DNA from: a virus
Lineage: Duplodnaviria > Heunggongvirae > Uroviricota > Caudoviricetes
Virus record (IMG/VR): IMGVR_UViG_2529292997_000008
Coordinates: 1-38,707 of that record
Reading direction: 5' to 3' (one strand)
Length of the DNA stretch: 38,707 nt
Part shown: piece by piece, positions 4,411 to 38,707 of the stretch
Layout of the letters: each line of letters opens with the position of its first letter
Position numbering within the stretch: the stretch's first letter is position 1
Notes under the pieces: model-generated
Told to the model about the DNA's origin: nothing
The model's input: the letters and a program-made list of their open reading frames with translations, nothing else
Databases searched by the model: none
Program-made: the position numbers and the translations under genes

Positions 4411-5463
4411 TCAAAGAGCGCCTGCGCGTGTGTCGCGTAGCGTTTTTGGTTTAAGCAGGAAATCAAGTGTCGCTGTGAAGCCATTGCCGAAGTAAAAATC
4501 TGAAGCCGTGTTTTTGAATGTTTCGAAGTAGGCGACAAAGCCGTTAATGCTTTTGTCTTTCAGGTAGTCAGTGAACGCATAGATCTTGCGTTCAAGATCC
4601 CGATCCAGTTCGACAGGTGGTAACAGGCCGTCAAACGTGCTGTTAAATGCTTCCACCACGTCGGCAGCGTTTGCAGTGGCTGACAGTTTGCGCCATTGTT
4701 CAGCATCAGTCAGATACCCATCAAATTTAGTTACCCGGCAAATATTGATAGGCTTAGGTGTTCCACCACGGCTACGCCATTGCGTTAAAGCCCACTCAAT
4801 CACTAATGTGATCTCATCCTCCGTATACGCTTTACGTGTTTTTGTTTCTGTCAGTAGTTCGATGAATGGCTTCGCATCACGACATTTGCATCCTGCCTTG
4901 TCGTTGTAGAAGGCCAGGCAACGCAACGCCGCTTCGTTTACGCCATCATGATTGACCATTTTTTGTTCATTTTCGACAATACACGAAGTGTATATATCTT
5001 TTTCTCTTTCTTCTTCTACTTCTAATTCTAATTCATGACCCTTTCCTGACCCGGTCATGACCCTATCATGACCTTTTTGTGTTGGATTGATTAACTTTTC
5101 TAATTTTAATTGCTCCTTAGCTGTGTTTATGGCGGCCCTGTACGCGCTTTTAGAAGTCATTGATTGGTCAAGCCTTTTCAATAACTTTAAACAAGTTATG
5201 TGGCCTTGAGAACATTCAAACAAACCAATTTCGATGAAGTATTTCATCATTTCTTCTATACGTTTTTCAGTCGATCCGACGTTTCGCGCAATGATTCTCG
5301 CGTCATGTCGTAGGTCAAAAGTCAGATTGTGCTGATCTACGTCATAAGTTATTAGTTCGAGGCAATACCAATAAAGCCCGTACCCTTCCAGGCCATAATC
5401 TAACAAAACGTTTTGAAGTTTTTCATCGCGGTTCGCATCGCTGTCATGCTTAAACCACTTCAT
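4411..5463 (-). CDS. replication initiation protein, phage replisome-organizer N-terminal type
   Basis: 350 aa; N-terminus MKWFKHDSDANRDEKLQNVLLDYGLEGYGLYWYCLELI resembles replisome organizer N-domain; acidic linker; GGAGGG RBS; start overlaps upstream stop. Confidence 0.65.
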   Translation of the reverse strand: MKWFKHDSDANRDEKLQNVLLDYGLEGYGLYWYCLELITYDVDQHNLTFDLRHDARIIARNVGSTEKRIEEMMKYFIEIGLFECSQGHITCLKLLKRLDQSMTSKSAYRAAINTAKEQLKLEKLINPTQKGHDRVMTGSGKGHELELEVEEEREKDIYTSCIVENEQKMVNHDGVNEAALRCLAFYNDKAGCKCRDAKPFIELLTETKTRKAYTEDEITLVIEWALTQWRSRGGTPKPINICRVTKFDGYLTDAEQWRKLSATANAADVVEAFNSTFDGLLPPVELDRDLERKIYAFTDYLKDKSINGFVAYFETFKNTASDFYFGNGFTATLDFLLKPKTLRDTRAGAL

Positions 5464-5466
5464 AGA

Positions 5467-5724
5467 TCATCCCTCCGGCAACATCACTACATAGACATCA
5501 CTGAATGCATCAAGACGACAAACAAATCCTTTATCCATTAACGCGGCGAAGGCATCATGTACCGTATGAACAGGAAGTTCACACATTGCGGCTACTTCTT
5601 TGCGTGATGCATCATGTACCCGTCCTTTGTTATCTGCCTTTTCAGCCAGAGCCATTAAGACAAGTTTTTGAATCGGGCTATTAAGTTTTACGTTCCATGC
5701 TTTACTAATCATGTTTATACTCAT
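5467..5724 (-). CDS. small winged-helix DNA-binding protein at Cro/CII position
   Basis: 85 aa from ATG at 5724 with AGGAGA RBS (the 111-aa track version needs a TTG start); first gene of leftward operon divergent from cI. Confidence 0.5.
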   Translation of the reverse strand: MSINMISKAWNVKLNSPIQKLVLMALAEKADNKGRVHDASRKEVAAMCELPVHTVHDAFAALMDKGFVCRLDAFSDVYVVMLPEG

Positions 5725-5833
5725 CGCATTTTCTCCTATGGTTAGAGTGAACGCGCGGGCGGGCATCCCATTAGCATTAGATAGCAGTGACTGACCGCTC
5801 AACAGATCCCGCCGTTGCGTGATATTTGTTTTT

Positions 5834-5867
5834 CGCTTCGCAGCGACACCGGATTTTTAAAGAGCAT
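5834..5867 (-). promoter_or_regulatory. candidate nut-like site (boxA TGCTCTTTAAAAA plus boxB-like hairpin CGCU-GCGA-AGCG) in leftward leader
   Basis: Read on minus strand; boxA 11-12/13 to rrn/lambda boxA consensus, followed 8 nt later by 4-bp stem with GNRA-type loop. Confidence 0.35.
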
Positions 5868-6029
5868 AAGGTAAGTGCCTTTTTGTGCCTTCCGTTATCT
5901 TTTTCCTTGCGTCTTTGCAAGTATGGCCTTACCTTGTCTGCAAGTTTACAAAATGGAATTTTAAGATCAAGGCTTAAAATACACGTTTTGTGACTTGCAT
6001 CAAACTTTTTGAGGTTATAGGGTAGCGAC

Positions 6030-6677
6030 ATGAAAACAAAATGGTATGACTTAGCAAAGCAGCTCATGCGGGCGCAGGGCATGAGCCAGGATTCGCTCGC
6101 GGATCGTATGGGGATAACTAAAGGCGGCCTGTCACACTGGCTGAACGGTCGCCGAGAGCCAAATCTTGAAGATATTGCGCGGATTATGCGCGAGCTTGGT
6201 CGTCGGCAGTTTACTGTTACACATGATGGCATGGTCATTGATGATTCTGTTTCTAATACACTTCAGGCCGTGCCGCCGCGTGATTTAGGTAGTTACCCGG
6301 TTATTGACTGGAAGGACACAGTAAACAATATGGATGACGCAAGGCGTTCAGCATTACGACACGTTACGACTAGCGTTATTTGTTCAGATGACAGTTACTG
6401 GCTGGTTGCCAAAGGTGAATCAATGAACGCGCCGCAGGGGTTGAGCATCCCGGCGGGGACGATGATACTTGTGGACCCGCACGCGCCAGCTATTGACGGC
6501 AAACTGGTTATAGCCCAGCTTGAGGAAGGGCAGATACCGACGTTTAAACAGTTGATTATTGATGGAGGTCAAAGGCTTTTACGTTCGCTCAATCCGCTGT
6601 ATCCGCCAATCCCTATGAATCCAGAATCAAAAATTATAGGCGTGGTGGTTGATGCGAAGATCGTAAACCTGCCATAA
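6030..6677 (+). CDS. CI-type prophage repressor (HTH-XRE N-domain, LexA-like S24 peptidase C-domain)
   Basis: 215 aa; HTH QDSLADRMGITKGGLSHWLNGRR; C-domain with GESM serine motif and downstream Lys-containing segment; GAGG RBS. Confidence 0.85.
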   Translation: MKTKWYDLAKQLMRAQGMSQDSLADRMGITKGGLSHWLNGRREPNLEDIARIMRELGRRQFTVTHDGMVIDDSVSNTLQAVPPRDLGSYPVIDWKDTVNNMDDARRSALRHVTTSVICSDDSYWLVAKGESMNAPQGLSIPAGTMILVDPHAPAIDGKLVIAQLEEGQIPTFKQLIIDGGQRLLRSLNPLYPPIPMNPESKIIGVVVDAKIVNLP

Positions 6678-6684
6678 ACATTAG

Positions 6685-6708
6685 CCGCCGAATGGCGGCT
6701 TTTCTTTG
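6685..6708 (+). terminator. rho-independent terminator after repressor gene
   Basis: GCCGCC-GAAT-GGCGGC hairpin followed by TTTTCTTTG. Confidence 0.7.
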
Positions 6709-6800
6709 CCTGGGAAACACCAAAACGTAAACAGAAAACGTTATTTATTATTTAAATATCAATGGCATATAAAATATTTTAAAAAAGTATACAAAATGGA

Positions 6801-6829
6801 TTGACTCGATGTTTTACGGGGCGTATATT
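6801..6829 (+). promoter_or_regulatory. sigma70-like promoter (PL-analogue) driving rightward early operon
   Basis: TTGACT-17 nt-TATATT; TACAAAATGGA motif immediately upstream (6790-6800). Confidence 0.5.
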
Positions 6830-7082
6830 GCGAGTCAAAGGAAGGGCGCAGGTAACAAAAGCAACTTCCTGGCACTTTAAAAATCAGGCTTAACACCTTG
6901 TCAACCGTGGAGTAACTCCCCGATGGGGGACCGAAAGCGGCACTGATAACAAGGCGCATGGGGTGTTTAAAGCGTTACATCCCCCACGAAACCGCACGCA
7001 AGGCGACGAGTCAGCTTGCTTGGAGTGAGCAAGGTCACGCCGGGAACGGCGATGATTGCGGGATTAGTTGAAAGATGTTAAG

Positions 7083-7120
7083 CCGCTCATTAACAATCTG
7101 GTCAGCCGCTGGAAGTGCGG
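7083..7120 (+). promoter_or_regulatory. candidate nutL-like site (boxA CGCTCATTAACAA, boxB-like hairpin GCCGC-UGGAAGU-GCGGC)
   Basis: boxA 11/13 to consensus, 11-nt spacer, 5-bp stem hairpin; about 60 nt upstream of N-like ORF. Confidence 0.45.
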
Positions 7121-7177
7121 CAATTAACGAAGATGATTTTTTATTAAGTATCATCAAGGATATACGGAGATCAGATT

Positions 7178-7468
7178 ATGAGCGTTACAATTATATATGG
7201 TAAATGTGATAGCAAAATGAATGCCAGGGAACGCAGAAGGATAAAAAGAGAAAACGAAAGAAAATCATCACCTGCAATCAATAAAACAGACAATGTGGAT
7301 AAAGCTATTCGATTTGCAAACGAGGAAAGATGCAAACCAAATAGCATTAAAGAACGTCGCAAAGGATCAGTAAAATGGTATACGGAAAATGAAAGCGGCA
7401 GCTACTACCACGCAACGCAACCACGCCATTTAGGGGAAAAACCCCTGGATAAAGTCCGCTACCATTAA
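7178..7468 (+). CDS. N-like transcription antiterminator candidate (arginine-rich motif protein)
   Basis: 96 aa, basic; N-proximal ARM NARERRRIKRENERK; first gene after PL-like promoter and nut-like site. Confidence 0.5.
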   Translation: MSVTIIYGKCDSKMNARERRRIKRENERKSSPAINKTDNVDKAIRFANEERCKPNSIKERRKGSVKWYTENESGSYYHATQPRHLGEKPLDKVRYH

Positions 7469-7498
7469 TACAAAATGTAAACATCCGGAGATGACATT

Positions 7499-7621
7499 AT
7501 GGTTATTCAGGCGCTTCAATTCAAACTGGCAGTAGCGGAAATGCTTCACGATGCCGAAATGTGGAGCGCCGCGAATAAAGCCTTATACATAGTGTTAACA
7601 GCACGGGAGATTAAATGGTGA
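7499..7621 (+). CDS. small ORF (40 aa)
   Basis: ATG with GGAG RBS, preceded by conserved 15-mer ATACAAAATGTAAAC cassette; overlaps erf start. Confidence 0.35.
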   Translation: MVIQALQFKLAVAEMLHDAEMWSAANKALYIVLTAREIKW

Positions 7622-8259
7622 AAACAGAGTTACATAAAAAGCTATGGACGATTCAGCAAACGCTGAACGCGCCGAAAAATCAGCGTAATAATTTTGGTGG
7701 ATATAATTACAGGTCGGCGGAGGATATTTTAGAGGCGGTTAAACCACTGCTTCAAAATATCACGCTGACTGTTAGTGATGAAATTGTCCTGATCGGCAAT
7801 CGCTATTATGTGAAAGCAACGGCGACGCTAAGCGACGGTGAAGACGTAATAGCGGTAACTGCTTATGCCAGGGAGGAAGAAAACAAGAAGGGTATGGACG
7901 CCAGCCAGCTAACAGGAGCAACATCAAGTTACGCGCGTAAATATGCTTTGAACGGTTTATTCTGTATAGATGATGCTCGCGATCCTGATACTGATGCTTA
8001 CGCGAAGCAGACAGGCCAGCAGCCGCGACAACAGAAAAACCCACCAAAACAACAACCGCAGCAGAAGAAAGCGCCGCCAAATCCTGATGAAGTATTAGCA
8101 CGTTTCTGTGATGCAGCAGCGAAAGCGCAGGACGCTAACAAGCTGCGTGAAATATTTGGCAAATGCTGGAAATTACTACCGGAAGGATCGGAACATCGAA
8201 TCAAGGCAAAAGATGTTTATGACATCCGGGTCGCAGAGCTTAACGGGGAGATGGGTTAA
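7615..8259 (+). CDS. erf: ERF-family single-strand annealing recombinase
   Basis: 214 aa; N-terminal ERF-like core, Q/P-rich linker, C-terminal domain; GGGAGA RBS. Confidence 0.8.
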   Translation: MVKTELHKKLWTIQQTLNAPKNQRNNFGGYNYRSAEDILEAVKPLLQNITLTVSDEIVLIGNRYYVKATATLSDGEDVIAVTAYAREEENKKGMDASQLTGATSSYARKYALNGLFCIDDARDPDTDAYAKQTGQQPRQQKNPPKQQPQQKKAPPNPDEVLARFCDAAAKAQDANKLREIFGKCWKLLPEGSEHRIKAKDVYDIRVAELNGEMG

Positions 8260-8678
8260 TGAGTTTGAATTCAATTACGCTGGGCGGGAATATCGGAAAC
8301 GACATGGAAGTTCGCTACACGCAAAACGGTAAAGCGATTGGTAGTTTTCCGTTAGCTGTAACGAATGGCTACGGTGATAACAAGCGGACAATGTGGATCA
8401 CTTGCCTGGTATTTGGTGAGCGTGCGGAAAAATTAGCGCCACATATCCGCAAGGGTGGAAAAATAGTGGTAAGCGGTCGCCTGGATGTTCGGCAATATGA
8501 CCGGAACGACGGCACGAAGGGGACTGCGGTAGAAGTGGCGGTTAATGAATTTGAATTCATGAATGTTAACCAACAAGGCCAGCAGCAAGGACAGCAGCAG
8601 AAAGCGCCGCCGCAGCAGCAGAATAATAACGGGAATAATCCGCCTCCGATGGACTTCGACGACGATATTCCTTTTTAG
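8259..8678 (+). CDS. ssb: single-stranded DNA-binding protein
   Basis: 139 aa; OB-fold core, Gln/Gly/Pro-rich linker, acidic C-terminal tail DFDDDIPF. Confidence 0.9.
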   Translation: MSLNSITLGGNIGNDMEVRYTQNGKAIGSFPLAVTNGYGDNKRTMWITCLVFGERAEKLAPHIRKGGKIVVSGRLDVRQYDRNDGTKGTAVEVAVNEFEFMNVNQQGQQQGQQQKAPPQQQNNNGNNPPPMDFDDDIPF

Positions 8679-9212: not shown

Positions 9213-9322
9213 ACCTTGCAAAAATTGCCGCATTGCTTGCGGCTTTGTCTATCGCTGTGCTGTATCTCAGCGCATCTCTTTATATCACGGCAGCGATCAT
9301 TAAACTCATTACTAACATGTGA
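9209..9322 (+). CDS. small hydrophobic peptide (37 aa)
   Basis: MNLAKIAALLAALSIAVLYLSASLYITAAIIKLITNM; GGAGGGTGG RBS; ATGA overlap with upstream stop. Confidence 0.4.
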   Translation: MNLAKIAALLAALSIAVLYLSASLYITAAIIKLITNM

Positions 9323-11471: not shown

Positions 11472-11664
11472 ACATTACATGGAATGGAAAATTCCAGAAG
11501 CAGCAACAAAGGCAGCGCCAGGAAATTTTTCTGGCGTTTATTTTTATATGGATGGCAAATGGTATTTCGGCAGCAGGCCGGATCACTACTATCAAGAAAT
11601 ATGCAAGCCTCACGTATGGGATATTAAAGAGCGCGTGAAAGGCGGGGTAATTGAGGACGTTTAA
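11461..11664 (+). CDS. hypothetical protein
   Basis: 67 aa track ORF. Confidence 0.45.
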   Translation: MKFKHYMEWKIPEAATKAAPGNFSGVYFYMDGKWYFGSRPDHYYQEICKPHVWDIKERVKGGVIEDV

Positions 11665-12150: not shown

Positions 12151-12690
12151 ATGAAAAATGATTACGGCGGCAGTCATACGCCGAAAGAAATAAAAGACCT
12201 ATGGCAGACGCCGAAACCTGTTTTTAGAGGAATGGATCGGGAATTCGAATTCGTCGCGGACGTGGCGGCAAACAAGGCAAATGCATTAGTTCCGCGATAT
12301 ATAACCGAAGAAATGAACACGCTTAATTACCCGTGGGGAGCGGTGGCGATGCCTGGTGAATATGTCTGGATGAATCCACCATATTCTAATCCGGGACCAT
12401 TCGTTGATAAGGCGGCGTTTGAACACCACCGAAATCATATTGGCTGTGTAATGTTATTGCCAGCCGACACTTCTGTTAGTTGGTTTATGAACGGCGTGGA
12501 GACGGCAAATGAATGCCGATTAATCACGCGCGGGCGGCTGGCGTTTATTAATGCCGCGACGGGTAAACCAGCAAGCGGAAACAATAAGGGGAGCTTGTTC
12601 TTGATCTGGCATCCACGGTGCAGACATGAATGTATTTTCACGCAGATAACACGTAAAGAGCTATATGCAAGAGGTGCAGATAATGACTAA
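12151..12690 (+). CDS. DNA N6-adenine methyltransferase, phage Dam family
   Basis: 179 aa; catalytic NPPY motif (WMNPPYSNPGPF); size and layout typical of small phage Dam-family enzymes. Confidence 0.75.
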   Translation: MKNDYGGSHTPKEIKDLWQTPKPVFRGMDREFEFVADVAANKANALVPRYITEEMNTLNYPWGAVAMPGEYVWMNPPYSNPGPFVDKAAFEHHRNHIGCVMLLPADTSVSWFMNGVETANECRLITRGRLAFINAATGKPASGNNKGSLFLIWHPRCRHECIFTQITRKELYARGADND

Positions 12691-13153: not shown

Positions 13154-13657
13154 ATGGAAAGGGTGACAATTGACAGGTTATTGGCCTGCATTTATGTCGC
13201 CGTTTTCGTGATCATTAACCTTATTGTTAACCACTGCGGCCCGTGGGTAATTCCGATCACCACGGTAGCCGCCGTGTGCGTCAATATGATGATCCGTGAC
13301 TTCCTGTTATATGACGGCGGCCTGAAATGGTCGGCTACAACATGCGCCGCCGCTGGCGCAATCACGGTGCTGATAAACTACGATGCCGGGATGGTGGCGA
13401 TCGCGTCATTCGTCGCGGTTGTTTCCGGTGCGCTTATTTCTGGCGGTGTTTACCGGATTTTACCTGGCGATTTCGATTCAAAACGCTGGCCTGCGAATAT
13501 AGCGTCCGCCATTGGTGATGCGTTAATTTTTCCCACGCTATCGTTTATGGCATTTATGCCGGAAATATCAGCTATGCAATTCATCTCAAAAATGGCGGCT
13601 GTAACGGTGATCACTATCATCATTCGTCGCTATTTTACGTTCGAGGGTAGGAAATGA
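13154..13657 (+). CDS. polytopic membrane protein, possibly YhhQ/VUT-like transporter
   Basis: 167 aa, about 5 hydrophobic helices; loose resemblance to YhhQ from memory only, unverified. Confidence 0.45.
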   Translation: MERVTIDRLLACIYVAVFVIINLIVNHCGPWVIPITTVAAVCVNMMIRDFLLYDGGLKWSATTCAAAGAITVLINYDAGMVAIASFVAVVSGALISGGVYRILPGDFDSKRWPANIASAIGDALIFPTLSFMAFMPEISAMQFISKMAAVTVITIIIRRYFTFEGRK

Positions 13658-14418
13658 GTGGGCTTAGAAATTGGGTGGTGTGGTCGCTGTACGACGGCAG
13701 CGGGTACGCCGTTAAAGATTGGGCCGACGCTGGCTATAAGTGTTATTGTTTCAATTATGACGGCGCTAATCATGGCGATTATGAAGGCGTCAAGATCATT
13801 CATCCTAACATTGAATATGTCAACGTATGGATTGACAGCCATTTCCTGGTAATGTTCTCCCCTGAATTGTCTGTTTATCCAGATCCTGACATTATCCTGG
13901 GCTTTCCTCCGTGCGACGATCTTGCGGTGTCCGGCGCTCGTTGGTTTTCAAGCAAGCGTGAAAAAGATCCTTACTTCCAGCAGAAGGCGGCATACAACGC
14001 AAAACTGGTAGAAACGCTTGCTGACATGTACCACGTCCCGTGGATGGTGGAAAACCCGGTTGGAGCACTGTCAACGTTATGGCGTAAGCCGGATTTCATT
14101 TTTAATCCGTGCGCTTACGGTGGCTACCTGCCGGAAGATGATAAGCATCCAGCTTTCCCGGAATACATCGCCGACCGCGACGCCTACACGAAGAAAACTT
14201 GTATCTGGTGCGGCAACGGATTTAAACAGCCGCTATTTCGGCCTGTACCAATGCCTGATGAGTGGGAAGATAGTAAGCAGCACGCGAAGTTAGGCTGGAA
14301 GTCGAAGCGCACTAAGATGATCCGCTCACTCACGCCGCGAGGATTCGCCCGTGCTGTATTCCTGGCTAATGACCGGGCAATCACGCGGACTACTCTTAAC
14401 CGCGTTTTACCGGATTGA
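13654..14418 (+). CDS. compact C5-cytosine methyltransferase-like protein with PCD variant of motif IV
   Basis: 254 aa; motif I-like LYDGSGYA, motif IV GFPPCDD (PC then D instead of Q), motif VI MVENPVG; ATGA overlap with upstream gene. Confidence 0.55.
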   Translation: MSGLRNWVVWSLYDGSGYAVKDWADAGYKCYCFNYDGANHGDYEGVKIIHPNIEYVNVWIDSHFLVMFSPELSVYPDPDIILGFPPCDDLAVSGARWFSSKREKDPYFQQKAAYNAKLVETLADMYHVPWMVENPVGALSTLWRKPDFIFNPCAYGGYLPEDDKHPAFPEYIADRDAYTKKTCIWCGNGFKQPLFRPVPMPDEWEDSKQHAKLGWKSKRTKMIRSLTPRGFARAVFLANDRAITRTTLNRVLPD

Positions 14419-14440
14419 TGTTTACAAAATGGCGTCATTG

Positions 14441-14456
14441 TGTGATGCGGATCACA
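14441..14456. promoter_or_regulatory. CRP-type palindrome TGTGATGCGGATCACA
   Basis: Perfect TGTGA-N6-TCACA, lying between inverted TACAAAATGG motif copies in the 160-bp intergenic region. Confidence 0.4.
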
Positions 14457-14578
14457 TAATGGCGCTTTATTGTTTGTTCGCATGTATCCGTTTTGTATAC
14501 TTCAAACAAACAAAATGCTCTTTAAAAATCCGGTAACGCTGAAATGCGTAAAAATCACCTGAAAAAGGAGAGAGCATT

Positions 14579-21958: not shown

Positions 21959-21981
21959 CCCGGCCCAGCGCCGGGTTTTTG
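21959..21981 (+). terminator. rho-independent terminator upstream of holin (tR'-like)
   Basis: CCCGGC-CCAGC-GCCGGG hairpin followed by TTTTTG. Confidence 0.7.
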
Positions 21982-38540: not shown

Positions 38541-38568
38541 CACAGAAAACCCCCAGCTAGGCTGGGGG
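38541..38568 (-). terminator. candidate convergent terminator for minus-strand transcription from beyond the window
   Basis: CCCCCAGC-TAG-GCTGGGGG hairpin with T-run on the minus strand only. Confidence 0.4.
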
Positions 38569-38707
38569 TTCCGGAAAGCTTTCAGCTTTAAGCCAGTTAT
38601 TAAAACCCCTTTTGATTTGTTAAAACACCTTGCGGTCTGGCAACTGCAAGTGTCAAACAAGAAATCAAAAGGGGGTCCCAATGGGGAACGAAAAGAGCTT
38701 AGCGCAC

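Follow-up and report, generated by a model that had tools for sequence, protein, structure and literature searches.

Gp17 and three nut sites in an mEpimmI-group (pro)phage of Escherichia coli point to the early antitermination system of mEp021

The stretch of DNA analysed here (the window: 38,707 nucleotides of the IMG/VR virus record IMGVR_UViG_2529292997_000008) is, to judge from its nucleotide relatedness to and synteny with phage mEp021, an mEpimmI-group (pro)phage of Escherichia coli. The module around its repressor gene is very probably an early N-type processive antitermination system, the same as that formed by the protein Gp17 and the nut sites in mEp021. The Gp17/nut system has already been published (in 2023, and its conservation across 48 genomes in 2025), and the window is one more member. 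A sequence-only reading of the window had proposed a lambda-style N system; the N type is upheld here, whereas the closest relative appears to be the gp24/nut system of phage P22 and not that of lambda.

According to the account in section 3.5 and the discussion of PMC11893012, which cites Arch Virol 168:92 (2023), Gp17 was shown experimentally to be the early antiterminator of mEp021. The same account names three target sites: nutL and nutR1, which lie upstream of the repressor gene and of gp17 respectively, and nutR2, which follows a cytosine methyltransferase gene; nutL and nutR2 are the most alike. The nut sequences are absent from the supplements of that paper. Three sites in the window fit the published description point by point, with nutL and nutR1 exactly where the paper places them, and in all three a boxA is followed at a short distance by a GNRA-type boxB hairpin on the transcribed strand of an early leader. 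The sites (loops in square brackets) and the two genes that belong to them are:

5866-5854, minus strand: boxA of nutL, TGCTCTTTAAAAA / UGCUCUUUAAAAA
5846-5833, minus strand: boxB of nutL, UCGCU[GCGA]AGCGA, a GNRA tetraloop closed by U-A
7084-7096, plus strand: boxA of nutR1, CGCTCATTAACAA / CGCUCAUUAACAA
7105-7121, plus strand: boxB of nutR1, GCCGC-U[GGAAG]U-GCGGC, ending 56 nt before the ATG at 7178
14516-14528, plus strand: boxA of nutR2, UGCUCUUUAAAAA
14534-14551, plus strand: boxB of nutR2, UAACGC-U[GAAA]U-GCGUAA
6030-6677, plus strand: gene of a cI-like repressor (HTH_3 and Peptidase_S24; Pfam E = 5.8e-19 and 1.5e-12)
7178-7468, plus strand: open reading frame (ORF) of 96 amino acids for an N-like antiterminator of PHROG 271, the ortholog of mEp021 Gp17

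The repressor gene, orthologous to mEp021 gp15/Rep021, has an early leader on either side. The sequence-only reading had noticed boxA- and boxB-like sites on both sides of the immunity region, and by position these are nutL and nutR1; the third site (14516-14551) had escaped it. Its rightward hairpin exists, shifted about 2 nt to the right of the range given, and does lie some 60 nt before the ORF. The nutR2 site is flanked by the 16-bp terminator hairpin that follows the methyltransferase gene (14431-14466) and by the block of ninF-like, NinG, RusA and Q-like genes, as in mEp021. Together with its flanks (14514-14533) it is identical to the nutL site over 20 consecutive nt, ATGCTCTTTAAAAATCCGGT. 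In the mEp021 record the corresponding boxA copies of nutR1 and nutR2 are found at 12224 and 20171, i.e. 7947 nt apart. The 2023 abstract of Valencia-Toxqui reportedly speaks of "more than 7.9 kbp", which matches this spacing. The sites are more than chance occurrences: the boxA core GCTC[AT]TTAA[AC]AA is present three times in the window against 0.042 expected, a count reached by none of 2000 dinucleotide shuffles, and each of the three copies has, within 4-12 nt of its end, a GNRA hairpin with 4 bp or more, as do only 1.8% of arbitrarily chosen positions.

The protein encoded directly after nutR1 is 92.7% identical to mEp021 Gp17, and the earlier description of an arginine-rich N-like ORF is borne out by its match to PHROG 271 "anti-termination protein N-like" (E = 1.3e-13). 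Lambda N (4.1e-23) and the P22-type gp24 encoded by phage L (5.3e-43) match the same PHROG. Membership of the N-protein family is thus indicated by PHROG 271 and also by a direct comparison (hhalign) with P22-type gp24, which gave a probability of 79% (E = 1.6e-5, 31% identity over 86 columns). The arginine-rich stretch reads A16-RERRRIKRENERK-29 and contains the motif A16-R-E-R-R-R-I-K-R24. Among 17 sequences, down to 62% identity, there is no variation at N15, A16, R17, R20 or R24, and at R19 and R21 conservation is at least 90%. For the group as a whole gp17 has been reported in all 48 genomes, with R17, R19, R20 and R24 fully conserved (PMC11893012, Negrete-Mendez et al. 2025); the window protein has exactly these residues. 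The C-terminal third is especially conserved, at W67, Y68, E70, E72, S73, G74 and Y76 and further at Q81, R83, L85, G86, E87, P89, L90, V93, R94, Y95 and H96. Relatives of the protein fall into 31 clusters of 60-98% identity. The family is narrow, as a profile search of 1.8 billion representative proteins returned only 4 matches; a tblastn search over 50,697 phage records found only the 7 group members, and a scan of the GTDB species representatives found no relatives.

The arginine-rich motifs of the three proteins can be written in one register: A-Q-T-R-R-R-E-R-R in lambda, A-K-T-R-R-H-E-R-R in P22 and A-R-E-R-R-R-I-K-R in Gp17. In lambda N the motif starts at A3 (A3-QTRRRERR) and in P22 N at A15 (A15-KTRRHERRR), the P22 sequence having been confirmed at 100% identity. 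On the basis of these comparisons Gp17 appears nearest to P22 gp24/nut rather than to lambda N. With P22 gp24 it shares the PHROG family, the best direct profile match over the whole length and an N-terminus of the form V-I-x-Y-G-K...N-A-(K/R)-x-R-R, although the identity is only about 31%. With lambda N it shares the motif register A-x-x-R-R-x-x-(R/K)-R and the position as first gene of the early operon adjoining the immunity region. Unlike in lambda, the operon of the N gene here runs rightward and the replication genes run leftward. Nus-factor dependence has been reported for both lambda and the mEp group; the mEp collection was in fact defined as Nus-dependent (introduction of PMC11893012), and the phage backbone is not lambdoid, according to PMC11893012.

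The nut sites were compared in 44 related viral contigs, in mEp021 and in L086 and L088, two relatives at a greater distance. In 46 sequences, all 131 recognisable sites obey one grammar: a boxA, a spacer YCYGG(UC), a stem of at least 3 (typically 4-6) pairs, a U, a GNRA loop or GGAAG, one base that is A or U, and the second strand of the stem. Their loops are limited to GAAA, GCGA, GUGA, GCAA and GGAAG; the stems vary in a compensatory manner (CCGC/GCGG, ACGC/GCGU, GCAC/GUGC, CUAC/GUAG, UUGCU/AGCAA). Stems that drift with compensation around a loop of fixed class match what is predicted for selection on a GNRA hairpin recognised by a protein.

Each of the three sites follows this pattern in its own way. 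All 43 sequences that extend over nutL have the same boxA core, GCTCTTTAAAAA (the 44th locus, L003, ends before the site), and among the relatives the nutL loop varies only to GUGA (L031) and to GCAA with a U.U closure (L040), both of the GNRA type. The nutL of L086, AUUGCU[GAAA]AGCAAU, is situated after a cro-like gene. The nutR2 loop is always GAAA in the relatives, on stems with ACGC/GCGU, GCGC/GCGU or CCGC/GCGG; forms such as CAGCGC/GCGUAG and CCCCGC/GCGGAA occur, and the outer pair passes from U-A to C-G through U.G. Most relatives share the nutR1 boxB GCCGC-U[GGAAG]U-GCGGC of the window, which is replaced by UGCAC-U[GAAA]U-GUGCA in L043, by GCUAC-U[GAAA]U-GUAGC in L044/45, by GCACU[GAAA]AGUGC in L088 and by CGCU[GAAA]AGCG in L086.

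The sequence-only reading had considered it unusual that one N protein should read a seven-base loop on one side and a GNRA tetraloop on the other. This objection largely dissolves, since all sites carry loops of the GNRA type: nutL would present U[GCGA]A, nutR2 U[GAAA]U and nutR1 U[GGAAG]U, the "seven-base loop" of the window being best read as a U.U-closed GGAAG, that is, GGAA plus one extra base. Pentaloops in known N-boxB complexes adopt a GNRA-like fold by extruding one base, which in the P22 loop GACAA is the C (PMC12550061). The P22-type nutL of phage L consists of CGCTCTTTAAC, 9 nt and GCGCU[GACAA]AGCGC, and has in common with the window nutL the CGCU/AGCG stem and the U-A closing pair. 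The P22 system differs in its GACAA loops, as opposed to the true tetraloops (GCGA, GAAA) or GGAAG of the window, in its closing pairs, which in the window group are often U.U, and in the number of nut sites, two in P22 and three in the window group. In lambda the boxB loops are the pentaloops GAAAA and GAAGA. The architecture, boxA and then boxB, is the same in lambda and in the window group, but lambda boxA is CGCUCUUA, whereas the copies in the window are closer to the rrn type, and lambda lacks the third nut site before the nin/Q block.

The reading of the module as a Gp17/nut system is carried by sequence features, a non-random grammar, conservation, compensatory variation and protein homology at the family level. 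Several observations weigh against it. The read-through experiment concerns mEp021 and not the window, and the experimental claim is taken from the summary given in PMC11893012. A Pfam search with Gp17 gave no match, a search of the PDB sequences returned only noise and hence no relative of solved structure, and the direct profile link to P22 N is moderate (79%). When isolated, the 51-nt nut segments fold no better than shuffled sequences (z = -0.2 to -0.7), as is to be expected for hairpins so short. An odd feature of nutR1 is its loop of five bases (GGAAG), in which the known folds do not assign the excluded base. Moreover, the sixth position of the nutR1 boxA, equivalent to lambda U39, is an A. 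Point mutants of lambda boxA at G35, C38 and U39 lose binding and function, and U39G weakens NusB:NusE binding and inhibits N (PMC2800207). Because of the A at the U39-equivalent position, the nutR1 boxA may be the weakest of the three.

The sites fit into a transcription scheme that is framed by candidate promoters and terminators:

5943-5970, minus strand: candidate leftward early promoter (PL-like), TTGATC (5970-5965), 16-nt spacer, TAAACT (5948-5943)
6801-6829, plus strand: candidate rightward early promoter, TTGACT-17-TATATT (10/12 in the scan)
14474-14501, plus strand: putative PL-like promoter module ahead of nutR2, TTGTTC-16-TATACT, its -10 overlapped by CCGTTTTGTA
6683-6700, plus strand: intrinsic terminator after the repressor gene, mEp021 TERM_1 (window 6684-6699)
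9227-9243, plus strand: terminator candidate downstream of nutR1, mEp021 TERM_2
11516-11536, plus strand: terminator candidate, mEp021 TERM_3
14431-14466, plus strand: 16-bp terminator hairpin after the DNA methyltransferase gene, mEp021 TERM_4 (14432-14465)
21959-21975: equivalent of mEp021 TERM_5

The rightward promoter candidate, a good one of the sigma-70-like kind, is kept in relatives with long and with short leaders (L088 has TTGACA-17-TATAGT), and its position gives a rightward leader of about 340 nt, the length that had been proposed from the sequence alone. The PL-like candidate scored 8/12, below the threshold of the scan; L088 has TTGACC-16-TAAACT at this position. In the window CCATTTTGTA overlaps its -10, and the candidate overlaps a copy of the motif TACAAAATGG, which also precedes the rightward promoter candidate (6790-6799).

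The motif TACAAAATGG deserves a description of its own. It occurs in 17 copies with at most one mismatch, against 3.9 expected in the window; six are exact (1815, 5947, 6790, 14423, 36084 and 36110) and 11 have one mismatch. Copies lie at or adjoining both early promoters and upstream of nutR2, and two inverted pairs are spaced 26 bp apart (19738/19764 and 36084/36110). The motif is also found at the promoters of the distant relative L086, the repressor of which has a nearly identical helix-turn-helix. It may be the operator of the repressor or the site of another regulator.

The two terminators named in the sequence-only reading are the equivalents of mEp021 TERM_1 and TERM_5. The first of these, proposed at 6685-6708 as a point at which to measure read-through, does not qualify: it lies upstream of the rightward early promoter and is therefore outside the path of the rightward transcript. 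In the hairpin at 14431-14466 the stem is conserved and the loop hypervariable. The stem at 11516-11536 differs from that of mEp021 by a compensatory C-G to A-U change (CGCCCGG...CGGGCG against CGCCAGG...CTGGCG).

On derepression, host RNA polymerase would start from two diverging early promoters, one on each side of the cI-like repressor gene, the leftward transcript carrying nutL and the rightward transcript carrying nutR1 just ahead of gp17. The N-terminal arginine-rich motif of Gp17, a basic protein, would bind the GNRA-type boxB of each nut RNA, while the near-consensus boxA copies would recruit NusB/NusE, with NusA and NusG. The RNA-tethered complex would then stay on the polymerase and read through the putative plus-strand terminators at 9227-9243, 11516-11536 and 14431-14466. 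Directly after the last of these, nutR2 would modify the polymerase again, so that the ninF/ninG/rusA/Q-like block, and with it the Q-like late regulator, could be expressed.

For nutR2 a different role can be envisaged. It could be the nut site of a third early unit with its own PL-like promoter (14474-14501), possibly controlled by the repressor, and not (only) a booster on the 7.4-kb transcript. Transcription would then start a few bases before the nutR2 boxA, past the insulating hairpin at 14431-14466, and there would be one promoter for each nut site. PL reads CTTGATC..TTCCATTTTGTAAACTTGCA, and the region upstream of nutR2 is parallel to it with (C)TTGTTC..ATCC(A/G)TTTTGTATACTTCAA. The same parallel exists in L088, with TTGACC-16-TAAACT at PL and TTGTCC-16-TATACT upstream of nutR2. 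In 35 distinct loci both hexamer regions are conserved, whereas 5 nt by the -35 vary almost everywhere at constant spacing, as in a promoter spacer. The interval from 14466 to nutR2, part of a module at 14420-14515, is strongly conserved except for three short patches, which keep their lengths and differ in almost every locus, and one of which falls exactly in the promoter spacer; inspection for pairing between two of these patches revealed no consistent complementarity. In addition, nutL and nutR2 share the 20 identical nt mentioned above, and motifs of the TACAAAATGG type flank all three regions. Against these points, both hexamer pairs score just 8/12 and were not called by the scan. The conserved ATCCATTTTGTATACTT block is also found in the opposite orientation just upstream of the -35 of the rightward promoter, so that it may be a protein-binding site instead of a -10. 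The 2023 abstract, moreover, is said to have the polymerase from nutR1 reaching nutR2. A third early promoter is thus a real possibility but not the favoured one, and the module constitutes a testable alternative to nutR2 as a far-downstream reloading site.

The rightward leader of the Gp17/nut system occurs in two forms. Counted from the promoter region up to the ATG, it measures 400-404 nt in 34 of 43 comparable loci (long form) and 187-189 nt in the other 9 (short form); mEp044, mEp554 and mEp013 also show the gap. In short leaders a consensus boxA lies about 45 nt from the -10. The first 53 nt of the long leaders are homologous to the whole short leader, after which 195 nt intervene before the working boxA:

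6871-6888, plus strand: degenerate copy of boxA and spacer, GGCACTTTAAAAATCAGG, homologous to the boxA and spacer of the short leader
6889-7083, plus strand: structured leader insert of 195 nt, present in 34 of 43 loci

The insert is therefore flanked by boxA-spacer repeats (6871-6888 and 7084-7101). It is closed by a 9-bp helix of GGCUUAACA (6887-6895) with UGUUAAGCC (7076-7084) and is predicted to form a multi-helix domain. Both major Gp17 lineages hold long and short leaders, while the distant L086 and L088 have short ones, and the insert is restricted to this phage group, occurring once in each of 31 E. coli genomes, in 4 phages and in 34 viral contigs; none was found in the GTDB representatives. 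The long leader is a lineage-specific insertion rather than something inherent to the nut site.

The complete rightward leader folds better than 100 of 100 shuffles (z = -3.46). In a hairpin at about 7015-7033, CUUGCU/AGCAAG is changed to AUCACU/AGUGGU in four sequences, with three double changes. Consensus folding of 17 distinct leaders revealed real compensatory change in this one hairpin only (3 pairs, one lineage), and the overall fold of the leader is for that reason plausible but unproven. The pentamer GCCGC occurs twice here, at 7082-7086, where it overlaps the start of the nutR1 boxA, and at 7105-7109, where it is the 5' arm of boxB. In the predicted fold of the isolated nutR1 segment the 3' arm of boxB pairs with the upstream copy, a copy that is partly tied up in the long leader by the helix closing the insert.

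Across 28 distinct long-leader loci the insert (6889-7083) is the most conserved stretch of the region, with a nucleotide diversity (pi) of 0.016, compared with 0.038 for nutR1 from boxA to boxB, 0.078 for the spacer upstream of the promoter and 0.12-0.15 for the flanking genes at third codon positions. The low diversity might also reflect a recent spread by recombination. A multi-copy mobile element (miniature inverted-repeat transposable element) was considered and rejected, as the insert is present once per genome and only in these prophages, and as its 17-nt flanking repeats show 4 mismatches although the insert between them hardly varies. Rfam searches of the region (E <= 10) and of the insert alone (E <= 5) yielded nothing credible.

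The sequence-only reading had described the rightward leader as free of ORFs, which is nearly right: there is an ORF of 37 codons at 6958-7071, annotated as gp16 in mEp021 (MH706966), and the extra 195 nt could in principle be a moron coding for this 37-amino-acid protein. The frame is open in all 17 distinct leader variants, one of which loses the stop codon. However, the ORF matches neither Pfam nor PHROG, and the RefSeq annotation (PGAP) of the 31 E. coli genomes lists nothing at this position. It has an AAGG just 3 nt before the ATG, its unique substitutions are 11 non-synonymous against 6 synonymous, the compensatory hairpin swap alters 5 of its residues, and in the alignments the 69 nt of the insert 5' of the ATG seem by eye about as conserved as the ORF itself. 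A coding moron is therefore improbable. Given the substitution pattern, the poor ribosome-binding context and the lack of a family match of the gp16 ORF, we think that a functional RNA (or DNA) element is likelier than a peptide. Tentatively, and at less than even chances, the insert may be a functional RNA element, a closed multi-helix domain placed between a degenerate and a working boxA, and neither a neutral recombination scar nor a protein gene. The insert and the PL-like module before nutR2 appear to be undescribed in the 2025 paper (PMC11893012).

The boxA copies raise the question of whether the sites might need no more than the Nus factors of the host, as in rrn operons, the hairpins and Gp17 being unrelated to this activity. 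The nutR1 boxA of the short-leader relatives is exactly UGCUCUUUAACAA, the rrn-type boxA, and the copies in the window are close to it. E. coli rrn antitermination (boxB-boxA-boxC; NusB/E/A/G, S4, SuhB) thus has a nearly identical boxA, but the order of its elements differs, and the system in the window would depend on a phage protein and has a GNRA hairpin downstream of boxA. A boxA followed by a hairpin is the order known from phages. NusB:NusE binds boxA RNA, and it binds rrnG boxA about 10 times more tightly than lambda boxA (PMC2800207), which would suit action by host factors alone. Every boxA is nevertheless coupled to a GNRA hairpin at a fixed distance and with compensatory stem changes, and dependence on Gp17 has been reported for mEp021 in the account of PMC11893012, which makes a purely host-driven function very unlikely. 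Slightly less credible still is that Gp17 is a Nun-like exclusion or termination factor that arrests the transcription of competing phages via nut RNA: it is small and arginine-rich with a strictly conserved aromatic C-terminus (VRYH), and HK022 Nun does use an arginine-rich motif on boxB, but gp17, like N genes, follows a lytic early promoter and has a nut site of its own beside it, the three early leaders of the phage itself carry matching sites, and it is antitermination that PMC11893012 reports from the mEp021 experiments.

The surroundings of the Gp17/nut module agree with the assignment of the phage. The region 5700-7700 of the window is 90-93% identical to mEp515, mEp010, mEp021, mEp044, mEp554 and mEp013, and 99.4% identical to phage MagusPhagus, in which the gene is annotated as "anti-termination protein N-like protein". 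Of 5426 complete E. coli genomes, 35 carry it once in the chromosome as part of a prophage, with an identity of up to 99.9%. The gene order is that of the mEp021 record (repressor, gp17, kil-like, Erf, SSB ... methyltransferase, ninF/G, RusA, Q). The neighbouring genes are:

4411-5463, minus strand: replication protein
5467-5727, minus strand: helix-turn-helix protein
7499-7621, plus strand: Kil-like ORF of 40 amino acids
7615-8259, plus strand: Erf
8259-8678, plus strand: SSB-like protein (product name from the mEp021 record)
13654-14418: DNA methyltransferase

The window and mEp021 share the orthologous gp17, three nut sites at the same positions, the repressor, TERM_1-TERM_5 and the nin/Q block. 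The window nevertheless represents another member of the group, 99-100% identical to E. coli prophages and MagusPhagus. The first base of the nutL boxA is U in the window and A in mEp021, the nutR2 stem is UAACGC/GCGUAA where the commonest form in the group is CAGCGC/GCGUAG, and the interval from Q to TERM_5 is longer than in mEp021.

The ORF directly 3' of gp17 (7499-7621) weakly matches lambda Kil (Pfam PF06301, E = 2.2e-4, which does not reach the curated cut-off) and matches PHROG 34942 (3.7e-32); the distant relatives L086 and L088 have an ORF of 39 amino acids in this position. At the far end of the window (38548-38671, plus strand) there is a full-length Rfam match to the Hfq-binding small RNA STnc490, with 146 bits (gathering score 56; E = 4.6e-30), which at the gathering thresholds is the sole Rfam match over the whole window. 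A search for tRNA and tmRNA genes found none.

Since the system is known in close relatives of the phage, the discovery value of its presence in the window is small. With the common grammar of the nut sites, the apparent difficulty that one protein should recognise different loops disappears, and the system comes to stand closer to P22 than to lambda. Beyond this, modest value attaches chiefly to the PL-like promoter module in front of nutR2 and to the two-form nutR1 leader. The insert of the long form is more conserved than all around it: if it is indeed a functional RNA element, it would tune Gp17 synthesis or the assembly of the nut complex in cis, or act in trans as a released stable RNA.

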